Source of the DNA: a virus
Lineage: Duplodnaviria; Caudoviricetes
Length of the DNA: 64,000 bases
IMG/VR virus record: IMGVR_UViG_3300015603_000051
Coordinates: 1,358-65,357 of that record
Direction: 5' to 3' (one strand)
Shown here: one piece after another, positions 2,080-5,093 of the stretch
How positions within the stretch are numbered: the first letter of the stretch is position 1
How the letters are laid out: every line of letters starts with the position of its first letter
Made by a program: the position numbers and the translations under genes
Notes under the pieces: generated by a model
What the model saw: only the letters and a program-made list of their open reading frames with translations
What the model was told of the DNA's origin: nothing
The model's database searches: none

Positions 2080-2652
2080 ATGCCCACTACATCTGCCGCT
2101 TTCGAACCTGAAGTATTCATCCTGCCCCTTCCGCTCGACTTCGATGACGAGCCCTTGGGCGACGTACTCACACGCGCTAACTCTCTGTGCGGCTCCGCCG
2201 AAGCGATAACCGCCGCCATGCACACGACCGGCCAGCCGCTGGCCCACAACGTCTCCGAGCAGGACCACATTGAAGCGCAGAAACTATTCCAAGCCCCCGC
2301 CAAGTCCCTCAACGACACCCCCACCAGCGTAGCCATTGTCTTAACGGCACTGCTGCAGGAATACGATCGCGAGTTCATCGTCAATGCCCAGCAGATACGA
2401 AACATCTGCATCAACACCCTGCTCGAGACGGTGAGCAAAGGCAAGACGACAGAGAAGCTGCGGGCCGTCGAGCTGCTGGGCAAAGTGGCTGACGTCGGCC
2501 TGTTCGTAGAGCGGACCCACCAAGTGATCGAGCACCGCCCTGATGAAGACCTGAAGCAAATGCTCAAGGACAAGCTGGGTAAACTGCGTACCATCGTCTC
2601 CGCCCAGCCGGCCCCCGAAGAAGTCACATTCTCGGAAGTGCCCACAGCATGA
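2080..2652 (+). CDS. probable terminase small subunit
   Basis: 190 aa, overlaps the TerL start (ATGA); LRAVELLGK..VGLF motif typical of the gene in this position. Confidence 0.65.
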   Translation: MPTTSAAFEPEVFILPLPLDFDDEPLGDVLTRANSLCGSAEAITAAMHTTGQPLAHNVSEQDHIEAQKLFQAPAKSLNDTPTSVAIVLTALLQEYDREFIVNAQQIRNICINTLLETVSKGKTTEKLRAVELLGKVADVGLFVERTHQVIEHRPDEDLKQMLKDKLGKLRTIVSAQPAPEEVTFSEVPTA

Positions 2653-5093
2653 GCACCAACAGCACAGCGTTCGACGACTTCACCACAGAAGAGTTGTCGT
2701 TCCTTGTGGACAACATGGACAAGCTGCCACGGCATGAACAGGTCGAACTGCAGACCGTGATCGAGACGCTGACCGCACGCAACGCCAGAAAAGCAGCGCA
2801 ACTGCACTTCCTAGATTTTATGTCCGCCGTTGAGCCATCCATGCTCCAAGGGCCGCAACACAAGATTATTGCCAGTGCGTTCGATCGGATCAGGAATGGT
2901 ACGTTGAAGCGGGTGATTATCAACATCGCGCCACGGCATTCCAAAAGCACAATGTCCAGCTATTTATTCCCTGCATTTTTCTTAGGGAATTTTCCTAATA
3001 AACAAATTATCATGGCATCGCACACCGCTGACCTCGCGGTTGACTTCGGTAGAAAAGTGCGTAACTTGGTAGCCTCTCCCGCTTACACCGAGGTATTCCC
3101 CGGCGTCGCGCTGGCCGCTGACTCGAAGGCGGCAGGCAGATGGAACACCAACTCGGGCGGTCTGTATTATGCCCTCGGTGTGGGTGGTGCGATGGCGGGC
3201 CGTGGTGGTGACTTGGTTATCATCGATGATCCCCACAGCGAACAAGAGGCCAAGTCGGGCAACCCTGCGATCTTCGATGCCGCCTATGAGTGGTATCAGT
3301 CCGGTCCACGCCAGCGACTCCAGCCGGGAGGGGCCATTGTTGTCTTAATGTGCATGGTCGGCGGGACCGACGTACTGCGGGCAGACGGCTCAACAACTAA
3401 GCTGCGGGACATTCGCCCCGGCGACGAAGTGGCAACCTTTGAAAATGGCGAGATAACAACGTCGCGTGTAAACAACTGGATGTCAAGTGGTGTTGATTCC
3501 ATATATACAATACAAACACAATCTGGCATAATACTCCAAGCGAACGAGAGACACCCGTTTCTTGTGGATTTTGATGGAGTGAAAAAATGGACAAGATTGC
3601 GCGACCTGAAACCGGGCATGTTGCTTGTAGCATCGAAGGCTGCAACAGACCCGCAAGAAGCAAAACAAAACCCGGACTCTGCCACGCTTGCCAAGCAAGC
3701 GCTTGCTACCACAAGAAAAATCCAGACGCCCCGCATAGAGGCATTGGGCACCACGGTAAGTGGAAAGGAGTGCTGTGCGCATGCGGAGAACCAGCAAAGA
3801 GCAAAGGGCTGTGCGCTGGATGCTATAGAAGAGAGTTCCCGCCAGCAAAACCTACGTCAGAAAAAACAAGAGCAAGCCGCATCAAACACAGGTACGGAAT
3901 CACAGCTGAACAGTTCGATGAAATGCTGCTCGCACAAGGCGGGCGATGTGCTGTCTGTGGAGAACTGCCAACCAAAACAAATACACGCGCACACTGGAAC
4001 GGAAAGCTGTGCATCGACCACTGCCACGATACAAACGAAGTCAGAGGGTTGCTGTGCAACAACTGTAACCTCGCAGTTGGCTACGGTGAAACTCCAGAAA
4101 AACTCGAACGAGCCGCTGAGTACCTACGTCGTTTTCTTAGACGAGATAGTTAGTATTGTTGAATCCGGCAGCGAAGAAGTTTTTGATGTAGAAATTGACC
4201 GCACTGAAAACTTCATCGCTAACGGTGTAGTAAGCCACAATACTCGCTGGAACAAGCGAGATTTAACGGGCCGACTCATAGAAAATATGGTCCGAAGCCC
4301 GGACGGCGACGAGTGGGAAGTCATCGAGCTGCCGGCCATACTCCCAAGCGGGCTGCCCTTGTGGCCGGACTTCTGGCCGCTGGAGGAATTGAATGCCATC
4401 AAGGCAACGATTGACACCCGCTACTGGCAGGCCCAGTACATGCAGAACCCCGTCAGCGACGAGGGTGCACTCATTAAGCGGGAGTGGTGGCGGCTGTGGG
4501 AGGAAGACCAACCCCCTGCCTGTGAGTTCATATTGGGTTCCCTCGACGCTGCAGCAGAGGTAAATAATCGGGCTGACTATACCTCCATCACGATCTGGGG
4601 CGTGTTCTATCGCCCGGACGAAGCCACCGGGGAACGGGTGGCCAACATCATATTGCTGGAGTCTATTCGCGAGCGGATGGAGTTCCCTGAACTGAAAGAG
4701 TGTGCCTACAGAGTTTACAAAGATTGGGAACTTGATGCATTCATCGTTGAGAAAAAGTCTGCCGGCACCCAGCTGTACCAAGAAATGCGAGCAGCAGGAG
4801 TGCCTGTATCGGAGTTTACCCCCACAAGGGCTACAGGTGACAAGTTCGCACGACTTAACGCTGTGGCTGACATTGTGCGCTCGGGACTCGTGTGGTATCC
4901 GGCGGGTAAACGATGGGCAGAAGAATTGGTGGATGAAATCGCAGGATTCCCCTCCTACGGCTCAGACGATCGTGTAGACACCACATCCATGGCGCTGGCG
5001 CGCTTCCGCAGCGGCGGGTTTATCCGCCTGCCCTCCGACCGGTGGGACGATGACAATGAGAAGACCTACCATCGCCCACGTAAATATTACTAA
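2649..5093 (+). CDS. terL: terminase large subunit with intein (814-aa precursor, 517 aa spliced)
   Basis: Walker A-like APRHSKS, Walker B IIDDP, coupling motif M|TRW split by an intein, RNase H-like C-terminal domain (SLDAA, DDRVD). Confidence 0.95.
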   Translation: MSTNSTAFDDFTTEELSFLVDNMDKLPRHEQVELQTVIETLTARNARKAAQLHFLDFMSAVEPSMLQGPQHKIIASAFDRIRNGTLKRVIINIAPRHSKSTMSSYLFPAFFLGNFPNKQIIMASHTADLAVDFGRKVRNLVASPAYTEVFPGVALAADSKAAGRWNTNSGGLYYALGVGGAMAGRGGDLVIIDDPHSEQEAKSGNPAIFDAAYEWYQSGPRQRLQPGGAIVVLMCMVGGTDVLRADGSTTKLRDIRPGDEVATFENGEITTSRVNNWMSSGVDSIYTIQTQSGIILQANERHPFLVDFDGVKKWTRLRDLKPGMLLVASKAATDPQEAKQNPDSATLAKQALATTRKIQTPRIEALGTTVSGKECCAHAENQQRAKGCALDAIEESSRQQNLRQKKQEQAASNTGTESQLNSSMKCCSHKAGDVLSVENCQPKQIHAHTGTESCASTTATIQTKSEGCCATTVTSQLATVKLQKNSNEPLSTYVVFLDEIVSIVESGSEEVFDVEIDRTENFIANGVVSHNTRWNKRDLTGRLIENMVRSPDGDEWEVIELPAILPSGLPLWPDFWPLEELNAIKATIDTRYWQAQYMQNPVSDEGALIKREWWRLWEEDQPPACEFILGSLDAAAEVNNRADYTSITIWGVFYRPDEATGERVANIILLESIRERMEFPELKECAYRVYKDWELDAFIVEKKSAGTQLYQEMRAAGVPVSEFTPTRATGDKFARLNAVADIVRSGLVWYPAGKRWAEELVDEIAGFPSYGSDDRVDTTSMALARFRSGGFIRLPSDRWDDDNEKTYHRPRKYY
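3351..4241 (+). mobile_element. class 1 intein in TerL (297 aa) with out-of-frame endonuclease
   Basis: Starts CMVGGTDVLRADG; block B-like ANERHPF; ends VFDVEIDRTENFIANGVVSHN followed by Thr+1. Removal restores GGAIVVLM-TRW. Confidence 0.93.
3587..4153 (+). CDS. Endonuclease VII-family (His-Me finger) homing endonuclease nested in an alternative frame of the intein
   Basis: RYGIT..F..ML..QGGRCAVC, IDHCH, VRGLLCNNCN motifs; N-terminal Cys-rich Zn-finger repeats; GGAG at 3576-3579, 7 nt before ATG. Confidence 0.9.
   Translation: MDKIARPETGHVACSIEGCNRPARSKTKPGLCHACQASACYHKKNPDAPHRGIGHHGKWKGVLCACGEPAKSKGLCAGCYRREFPPAKPTSEKTRASRIKHRYGITAEQFDEMLLAQGGRCAVCGELPTKTNTRAHWNGKLCIDHCHDTNEVRGLLCNNCNLAVGYGETPEKLERAAEYLRRFLRRDS

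Follow-up and report, generated by a model that had tools for sequence, protein, structure and literature searches.

The stretch of DNA analysed here, called the window throughout, comprises 64,000 nucleotides of a virus assigned to the Caudoviricetes (Duplodnaviria; IMG/VR record IMGVR_UViG_3300015603_000051, positions 1,358 to 65,357), and only the initial 1,357 bases of this record, which measures 65,357 bp, has direct terminal repeats and is rated complete, are outside it. On its + strand, to which all features of the window described below belong, the ORF list places at 2649..5093 an open reading frame (ORF) of 814 amino acids (aa), which encodes the precursor of the large terminase subunit, TerL, including an intein. 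The product matches PHROG 38, terminase large subunit (E 1.3e-88), the Pfam family Terminase_6C (E 7.2e-12) and, weakly, Terminase_6N, and removal of the intein leaves a terminase of 517 aa. Within the intein, in another reading frame, lies a second ORF of 188 aa with similarity to endonuclease VII, and the relationship between this nested ORF and the intein that surrounds it is the subject of this analysis.

An alignment with 22 homologues delimits the N-extein, which is the ATPase part and ends in ..GGAIVVLM, to 2649..3350. The intein itself (CMVGG...VVSHN; 3351..4241; TerL residues 235-531; 297 aa) runs from Cys1 to a terminal His-Asn and is followed by Thr+1 of the C-extein (TRWNKRDL...; 4242..5093), which the ORF list and Pfam show to hold the remainder of the ATPase and the nuclease domain of the terminase. 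The insertion site between ..VVLM and TRW falls within that region of the terminase ATPase which holds the coupling (C) motif. The intein frame is matched in Pfam by Intein_splicing (PF14890; 56.2 bits, cut-off 35.8) and also by Hint, and no nuclease family in Pfam or PHROGs matches it over the same bases that contain the nested ORF. Among 14 aligned inteins C1, H68 and N297 are invariant and H296 is conserved in at least 90%; in block B, the position usually occupied by Thr is an invariant Asn (N65), giving the motif NExH with the invariant H68. Each of the 20 aligned sequences that extend as far as the junction has Thr+1, the first residue of TRW (the homologous loci L009 and L014 end before it, and L023 is without the N-terminal part).

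An AlphaFold2 model of the intein, built on the 14-sequence alignment, together with the homologues and their conservation, divides it into three parts. The N-terminal splicing lobe (residues 1-99; 3351..3647) has a pLDDT score (predicted local distance difference test) of 85-97 and is 54-71% identical to its homologues. The C-terminal splicing lobe (residues 255-297; 4113..4241), which ends in ...EEVFDVEIDRTENFIANGVVSHN, reaches 91-96 over residues 260-297, and of the 22 homologous loci in which it is covered, 20 are 65-91% identical to it (L022 has 47% and L122 has 62%). The stop-free linker between them (residues 100-254; 3648..4112) has no family match and scores of 26-36. In a Foldseek search with this model, mini-inteins ranked at the top, with 55 matches at E <= 0.001 and template-modelling (TM) scores of 0.75-0.86 on the target, including the NpuDnaB intein (4o1r; E 8.5e-9, TM 0.85 on the target) and the splicing domain of the Mtu RecA intein (TM 0.86). 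The two lobes are thus modelled as a mini-intein fold that is joined by a 155-residue disordered linker. The nucleophile, the block B His, the His-Asn followed by Thr, the profile, the fold and the empty alleles described below all fit a class-1 intein (HINT), to which the insert belongs.

The nested ORF (3587..4153; ORF list, Pfam, PHROG) is situated wholly within the intein and is offset by +2, equivalent to -1, from the TerL frame ((3587-2649) mod 3 = 2). It consists of a Cys-rich N-terminal half and an Endonuclease VII domain. Residues 97-181 match the Pfam family Endonuclease_7 (PF02945) with 68.5 bits (cut-off 23.6, E 4.7e-19) over 80 of 82 profile positions, and residues 19-183 match PHROG 2914, 'endonuclease VII' (E 4.6e-32); PHROGs with this annotation that match the ORF number five at E below 1e-6 and seven at E up to 0.01. 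The catalytic domain (Endonuclease VII or His-Me finger; residues 97-181; 3875..4129), delimited by PF02945, a family profile and Foldseek, is preceded by the N-terminal half (3587..3871), in which conservation reveals two Cys clusters (C14, C19, C32, C35 and C64, C66, C76, C79). In the alignment of the nested proteins C14, C19, C32, C35, C64, C66 and C76 are invariant. The clusters are probably zinc-binding modules that would serve DNA recognition; this half is modelled with pLDDT values of 34-82, and it is also found in free-standing phage nucleases annotated as endonuclease VII.

The nested protein is 47-66% identical across 14 aligned homologues, and in 15 nested sequences, which diverge down to 47% identity, 47 columns are invariant, including every position of the catalytic motifs. 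The residues C121, C124, D144, H145, H147, C157, C160 and N161 do not vary in these 15 sequences and are aligned to CLIC, DHDH and CNLCN of 1e7d; we take them to be the counterparts of the residues that bind zinc and carry out catalysis in T4 endonuclease VII. A profile of the 15-sequence family retrieved T4 endonuclease VII (1e7d, E 2.2e-5) and also Hpy99I, with CxxC, DHxH and GKVRGLLCNxCN aligned. A structural model based on the 15 sequences (mean pLDDT 75; 77-93 over residues 61-180) contains a beta-beta-alpha-metal fold, with strands at 142-145 and 152-156 followed by a helix at 158-167, and Foldseek matched it to Hpy99I (E 3e-4) and to T4 EndoVII (1e7l, E 2e-2). The profile, the positions of the Cys and DHxH...N residues and the modelled fold all point to membership of the nested ORF in the Endonuclease VII / His-Me finger family.

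The two genes are closely interlocked: the structured parts of either frame coincide with weakly structured ends of the other. The nested stop codon TAG overlaps the host V-S codons in DEIVSI, that is, the codons that open the C-terminal lobe. The nested ATG is formed from the last base of one host codon and the TG of an invariant intein Trp codon, and 7 nt before it, on a conserved intein Gly codon, the sequence contains a Shine-Dalgarno-like GGAG (3576..3579). At the same position, GGAG is present in 13 of 20 loci, AGGGG in four, AGGA in one and a weak site in two; all 14 distinct loci use GGA or GGG for the Gly codon underneath, compared with 41% GGR among the Gly codons of the C-extein. 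The nested start is likewise found at the same alignment position, as ATG in 16 and as GTG in four of the 20 loci, and in 15 of them a nested-frame stop occurs 3-21 nt upstream, which in L010 directly abuts the start. A run of six A residues directly before and into the ATG (3582..3587) is a possible slippage site in this genome only; it is not conserved in the homologues at the 20 loci compared. Because the A-run is not conserved, independent initiation would appear to be the conserved solution for the expression of the nested gene. It should be noted that a sigma-70-like site at 3504-3532 (+; TATACA, 17 nt, CATAAT with a TG), located 55 nt before the nested ATG, was rejected as evidence for an internal promoter: the promoter scan gave three sites in the region and 1.6 +/- 1.2 in shuffles, and was thus not above the shuffles.

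The original prediction had described an intein with intact splicing blocks and without a nuclease in the terminase frame, and a 188-aa ORF at an offset of +2 that begins 7 nt after a GGAG, carries the motifs RYGIT, CAVC, IDHCH and RGLLCNNCN and stops at DEIVSI. All of these coordinates and details were confirmed, including the location of all four motifs in the nested ORF; in the terminase frame the insert matches nothing but Intein_splicing and Hint, and a comparison of both frames with Pfam and PHROGs, which had been proposed as a check, returned Endonuclease_7 only for the shifted frame.

Two open frames over several hundred nucleotides might arise by chance. When the nested protein of the window was recoded synonymously, the host frame was stop-free in 15-25% of 1000 trials, and when the order of its codons was shuffled, in 1.4%. 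The openness of a single sequence is therefore weak evidence, and it is the family-level pattern that carries the argument. In 16 of 16 diverged homologues the host frame contains 0 stops over the overlap, compared with 3-36 in the third frame, and all nested copies that were detected have one and the same offset between the frames. At the level of the family, the pattern of two open frames is thus far beyond chance.

The pattern of variation distinguishes the two frames. Column entropy at the nested codon positions 1, 2 and 3 is 0.75, 0.60 and 1.31, respectively (19 distinct sequences, 170 ungapped codon columns), and the mean pairwise amino acid identity over the overlap is 0.59 in the nested frame versus 0.36 in the host frame, the nested frame being the more similar one in all 171 pairs. 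In close pairs, changes silent only in the nested frame were set against those silent only in the host frame: 18 versus 7 were found for L009/L012, 16 versus 6 for L017/L019, 10 versus 6 for L018/L019 and 8 versus 2 for L017/L018, and two further distinct close pairs gave 1 versus 0 and 1 versus 1. Two population variants inside the overlap, 3703 T>C and 3808 G>A, which were observed in other sequencing runs, leave the nested protein unchanged, and each of them alters the intein frame. These results show that the nuclease frame is under purifying selection, with substitutions mainly at nested third positions, and that the intein-frame linker is merely kept free of stops as a poorly conserved, disordered tether. 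The concentration of conservation in the nested frame bears out the earlier view of a separate overlapping nuclease gene, and the absence of stops in 16 of 16 homologues, together with the modelled disorder, agrees with the accompanying proposal that the intein frame acts as a stop-free linker.

A search of viral contigs with the nested protein yielded 30 loci, of which 21 (L003-L023) are nested in a long ORF with the same +2 offset and nine are free-standing nuclease genes. Three of the 21 are incomplete, L009 and L023 at contig ends and L014 by an N that breaks the terminase frame. One further nested copy, L076, was found among terminase relatives. In bacterial and archaeal genomes, 45 loci were detected, 13 of which (L115-L127) have the N-lobe, the nested ORF, the C-lobe and the exteins in the same arrangement and phase; the rest are one broken copy (L128) and 31 loci without an intein. 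The same insertion site and offset were found in Gordonia phage Angelicage and in the Mycobacterium phages Chandler and AlanGrant. All nested copies share one insertion site, and the nuclease is always flanked by both lobes.

The isolate genomes that contain copies include those of Bradyrhizobium tropiciagri (on a 948-kb contig), Oribacterium, Dysosmobacter and Mycolicibacterium vanbaalenii. Further copies are located on contigs of metagenome-assembled genomes (MAGs) labelled Caulobacteraceae, Geobacteraceae, Microbacteriaceae, Saccharimonadales, Chloroflexota, Anaerolineae, Vulcanimicrobiota, Oleiphilaceae and Gallionellaceae, labels that are weak evidence for the host because phage contigs are not reliably binned into MAGs. 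Of 50,697 records of isolate phages, 39 contain the N-lobe of the intein, and all 39 are Mycobacterium, Mycolicibacterium or Gordonia phages. The window has a G+C content (GC) of 0.52 compared with 0.67-0.68 for the actinophage loci, and its portal protein is nearest to those of phages of Pelagibacter, Roseobacter, Caulobacter, cyanobacteria and a gammaproteobacterium (34-41% identity; 13 host-naming records). Judged from these sequence features, the window is not an actinobacteriophage of that kind, but an unrelated environmental phage. The terminase insert of Roseophage DSS3_VP1, which the accessible part of PMC8323127 describes as an intron with a 'Type VII homing endonuclease', was considered as a possible mis-called copy and rejected, since the N-lobe search of the phage records returned phages of the three actinobacterial genera only.

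Several loci depart from the common form. In L005, L007 and L015, whose host ORFs are about 1125-1151 aa long, the terminase contains two inteins, one upstream with an in-frame LAGLIDADG nuclease and one at the C-motif site with the nested Endonuclease VII gene; the 1262-aa open frame of L119 may resemble these two-intein terminases. In P0001 (476 aa, on a 2,097-nt contig), which is close to L004, an internal deletion has joined the N-extein and N-lobe to the nuclease frame, and the protein terminates at the stop codon of the nuclease; it is either a defective variant or an assembly error. In L128 (2100-3900 of a 911-kb contig of an Alphaproteobacteria MAG), the N-lobe contains a stop and is joined in frame to the nuclease, and the C-lobe and C-extein occupy a different frame; the nuclease frame is still open, and the locus looks like a decaying prophage terminase. 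Forms with the nuclease in frame with the intein were not found among 452 candidates for longer proteins, the sole match being the truncated P0001, although such an absence is weak evidence. L120 (Oribacterium) and L121 (Dysosmobacter) have similar strain labels and agreed in identity values and match coordinates for all pieces compared, a likeness that may reflect a shared phage or carry-over between assemblies. The nested ORF of AlanGrant (L114) has DHDE in place of DHxH and RELLCN in place of RGLLCN, and with these altered catalytic motifs this copy may be losing activity.

In the 80 best C-extein relatives of the terminase in viral contigs, the N-extein directly abuts the C-extein in 78, with the consensus empty site ..VVM|TRW... 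One of the other two carries the element; the second, the nearest relative L033, whose C-extein is 74% identical to that of the window, is empty at this site and has a different intein 43 residues upstream. The element can therefore be regarded as mobile, as 78 of the 80 closest terminases have an empty site. A FastTree phylogeny of 100 C-exteins (the window, 20 carriers and 79 non-carriers, L009 and L022 having been omitted for short or weak matches) requires at least five gains or losses of the element, four by well-supported branches, compared with 19.3 changes on average when the labels were shuffled (0 of 500 shuffles was as low); the window pairs with the empty L033 with a support of 100. 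The empty L035 and the occupied L005 have identical 24-nt flanks on both sides (48 nt). When the empty site of L033 (L033:2977-3024) is placed beside the flanks of the window (3342-3350 and 4242-4250), ACA AGA stands against ACT CGC after the junction, both encoding Thr-Arg, and there are two silent differences upstream of the junction as well.

The lobes follow the nuclease more closely than they follow the exteins. Between the window and Angelicage the N-exteins are 32% identical and only 33 residues of the C-exteins can be aligned, compared with 54% and 71% identity for the two lobes and 55% for the nuclease. Over 91 pairs, which are not independent of each other, lobe identity correlates with nuclease identity with a Spearman coefficient of 0.77 and with extein identity with a coefficient of 0.25. 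The intein has a GC of 0.50 and the exteins of 0.55-0.57, a gap that is too small to date the acquisition. Inherited inside a splicing element and patchy among close alleles, the nested gene fits a homing endonuclease gene as far as can be judged from the sequences.

A mini-intein with a separately translated homing endonuclease is the best reading of these observations; the dual coding is genuine and well conserved, and most likely the two parts form a homing unit. We consider it probable that the element is a composite selfish element, in which a once free-standing gene for a homing endonuclease of the Endonuclease VII type has come to be located in the +2 frame between the splicing lobes of a mini-intein. 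Within the terminase message, ribosomes would start independently at GGAG-N7-ATG and produce a nuclease of 21 kDa, and the 814-aa precursor would splice to yield the 517-aa terminase, for which the homologous Chandler gp6 intein, reported to splice in a reporter (PMC5050341), gives indirect support. In co-infected cells the nuclease would cleave terminase alleles that have no intein, close to the VM|TRW codons, and the intein and the nuclease gene would then be copied in together during repair.

One alternative is that the layout is an artefact of assembly or sequencing, so that the nuclease truly shares the frame of the intein and a pair of compensating indel errors has displaced it. Metagenome assemblies can carry indels, and the N in L014 does break a terminase frame. 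However, the same +2 offset is found in the 21 viral loci, in L076, in the 13 genome loci and in three sequenced isolates, and the sole fused form, P0001, is a truncation into the nuclease frame rather than an in-frame intein. In addition, independently assembled contigs of four public runs from two studies, which cover parts or all of 3300-4300, contain no inserted or deleted letters, so that the compensating errors that the original prediction had named as fatal to it did not materialise, and the probability of an artefact seems negligible. A second possibility is that -1 ribosomal frameshifting or transcriptional slippage produces a fusion of the N-extein, the N-lobe and the nuclease without an independent start. 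In the window, the six-A run at 3582-3587 is situated where the frames would switch, and the deletion variants P0001 and L128 show that fusions of the N-lobe to the nuclease frame arise naturally. Nevertheless, the A-run is not conserved, while an ATG or GTG start codon is conserved in 20 of 20 loci, and in 15 of these loci the start is preceded at 3-21 nt by a nested-frame stop, so that a conserved slippery site is missing. Furthermore, L128, with its stop in the N-lobe, looks like a decaying prophage copy, P0001 is represented by just one sequence, on a contig of 2,097 nt, and the fusion must be regarded as improbable.

T4 endonuclease VII clears branched DNA for packaging, and the nested enzyme might likewise serve the phage as a packaging-linked junction resolvase that is co-expressed with the terminase. 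It belongs to the Endonuclease VII family, it is encoded by the only such gene in the 65-kb genome, and the gene is located in a packaging gene. Yet it is absent from 78 of the 80 closest terminases and also from the sister phage L033; among the loci examined, those of its close relatives that are located in a terminase are all inside this intein; the intein and the nuclease move jointly among widely differing terminases; and the nested protein has an extra Cys-rich half. A role for the phage is thus unlikely, although less so than a fusion by frameshifting. A related idea, that the gene encodes one of the terminase-adjacent HNH packaging cofactors of cos phages, was rejected, because 78 of the 80 close terminases have no nested gene and the phage has direct terminal repeats. 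It could also be argued that the nested ORF is an unexpressed, decaying relic whose open frame is a by-product of selection on the terminase frame. This possibility is raised for such inteins in the accessible part of bioRxiv 10.1101/2025.01.02.630785, and the AlanGrant copy is indeed altered in its DHxH and RGLLCN motifs. But selection on the terminase frame cannot hold another frame open, the third frame contains 3-36 stops, and the pattern of variation, with 47 invariant columns across 15 sequences, shows that the nested frame is protected, which makes a relic about as improbable as frameshifting.

Several points weigh against the view that the nested gene is a separately translated homing endonuclease. 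For the window taken singly, synonymous recoding gives a P of about 0.15-0.25 for an open host frame, which makes it only mildly unlikely. Because the GGAG lies on a conserved Gly codon, its conservation is in part due to the intein protein; the comparison of GGR in 14 of 14 loci with 41% in the C-extein ignores shared ancestry. The rows of the C-extein tree were chosen in two ways, by similarity to the window and by carriage of the element, so that the number of changes is indicative only. The structural match of the nuclease is modest, with a TM score of about 0.28, which is explained by the loose packing of the two halves of the model. One of the four runs, X1, is possibly the source of the window itself and hence not independent.

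A second out-of-frame nested gene was observed in the sister phage. L033 (1900-2870) contains a different terminase intein in the Walker B region (GSDL|CVNL...LTHN|CVIDD), and in the +1 frame relative to its host a nested ORF of 194 aa (L033:2198-2782) matches PHROG 3377, 'HNH endonuclease', with E 2e-48; none of the Pfam families matched this ORF. Of its homologues, 38 loci were found, and among the 25 that were checked (relatives include L160-L166 and L171-L175) 12 are nested in a long ORF and 13 are free-standing. This type of nesting is not among the four non-canonical types distinguished in the accessible part of bioRxiv 10.1101/2025.01.02.630785. With a second, unrelated nested gene in L033 that is conserved in 12 loci, out-of-frame capture may be recurrent.

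The architecture itself is not new, as it was described in 2025 for actinobacteriophages; new are its presence outside that group, the evidence for selection, and the second out-of-frame nested gene in a neighbouring intein. The Endonuclease VII-in-intein layout is thus found also in uncultivated environmental phages and in prophage-like regions of other phyla. One dual-coding lineage might be old and have kept the same phase of overlap while moving between the terminases of phages and prophages of several bacterial phyla, and out-of-frame capture of free-standing nuclease genes may be a recurrent and stable route to intein mobility rather than a short-lived accident; on the present data, the case for this wider view is evenly balanced. 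If it is true, many of the 'mini-inteins with long linkers' in the databases may hide nuclease genes. Overlapping genes inside inteins are missed by gene callers. The selection evidence suggests that the hidden gene is functional, and the case supports the idea that the capture of free-standing nuclease genes is how inteins become mobile. The pairs of empty and occupied alleles are ready substrates for work on homing and on dual-frame translation.

The closest known systems are found in actinobacteriophages, for which the original prediction had mentioned out-of-frame intein nucleases, rating the layout as rare rather than certainly new; this was correct, and those phages carry the homologous element. 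The preprint cited above (bioRxiv 10.1101/2025.01.02.630785), a survey of actinobacteriophage inteins, describes the architecture, in its accessible part, for Gordonia phage inteins, calls such inteins previously unreported and names Angelicage, Affeca, Keitabear and Sedona. With these four phages the window shares 66-67% of the nucleotides over 3887-4256 (blastn) and 54-55% of the residues of the nuclease (tblastn). The literature on inteins with endonuclease VII and on out-of-frame intein nucleases yielded no description of the element outside actinobacteriophages, although the supplementary intein-cluster tables of the 2025 preprint, which were not covered, may include more hosts, and the nested ORF is not listed in the annotation tables of Angelicage, Chandler and AlanGrant. 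Angelicage has a homologous intein at the same site (..M|C...SHN|TRW) of the same host gene, the terminase, with a nuclease ORF between the splicing blocks on the same strand and at the same +2 offset. It differs in that the host phage is unrelated, as is seen from the 32% identity of the N-extein and from a GC of 0.68 versus 0.52, and in that its nuclease has 151 aa compared with 188 aa in the window, which keeps the first Cys cluster. The TerL6-f intein of the cluster B3/B4 mycobacteriophages (Chandler gp6) is reported in the accessible part of PMC5050341 to be located in the coupling C-motif of the ATPase and to splice in a reporter. It shares with the window the site, the intein family and the nested nuclease frame; its host is an actinobacteriophage, and identifiable nuclease domains are named, in the same part of that paper, for other TerL inteins, TerL1-b and TerL1-c.

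More distant systems resemble the element in part. T4 endonuclease VII (gp49; 1e7d, 1en7, 1e7l) and Hpy99I (3fc3) have in common with the nested protein the catalytic family, the aligned CxxC, DHxH and GKVRGLLCNxCN motifs and the fold, but gp49, with 157 aa, lacks the Cys-rich N-terminal half and is a junction resolvase that is free-standing. The ShiLan insertion in a phage DNA methylase is, according to the accessible text of PMC11855218, a stop-free in-frame insert that likewise hides an HNH endonuclease in another frame; the host gene and the nuclease subfamily are different. A further parallel is that of the cyanobacterial dnaX intein, for which 10.64898/2026.09.14.751524 reports, in the part that is accessible, an out-of-frame LAGLIDADG-like nuclease and credits the first hint to Gorbalenya 1998. 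There, too, a same-strand +2 ORF is located between the lobes, the in-frame linker is disordered, a Shine-Dalgarno-like site is present, the nested frame is under purifying selection and the distribution is sporadic, whereas the nuclease is LAGLIDADG-like, the host gene is the cellular dnaX and the intein belongs to an unrelated lineage.

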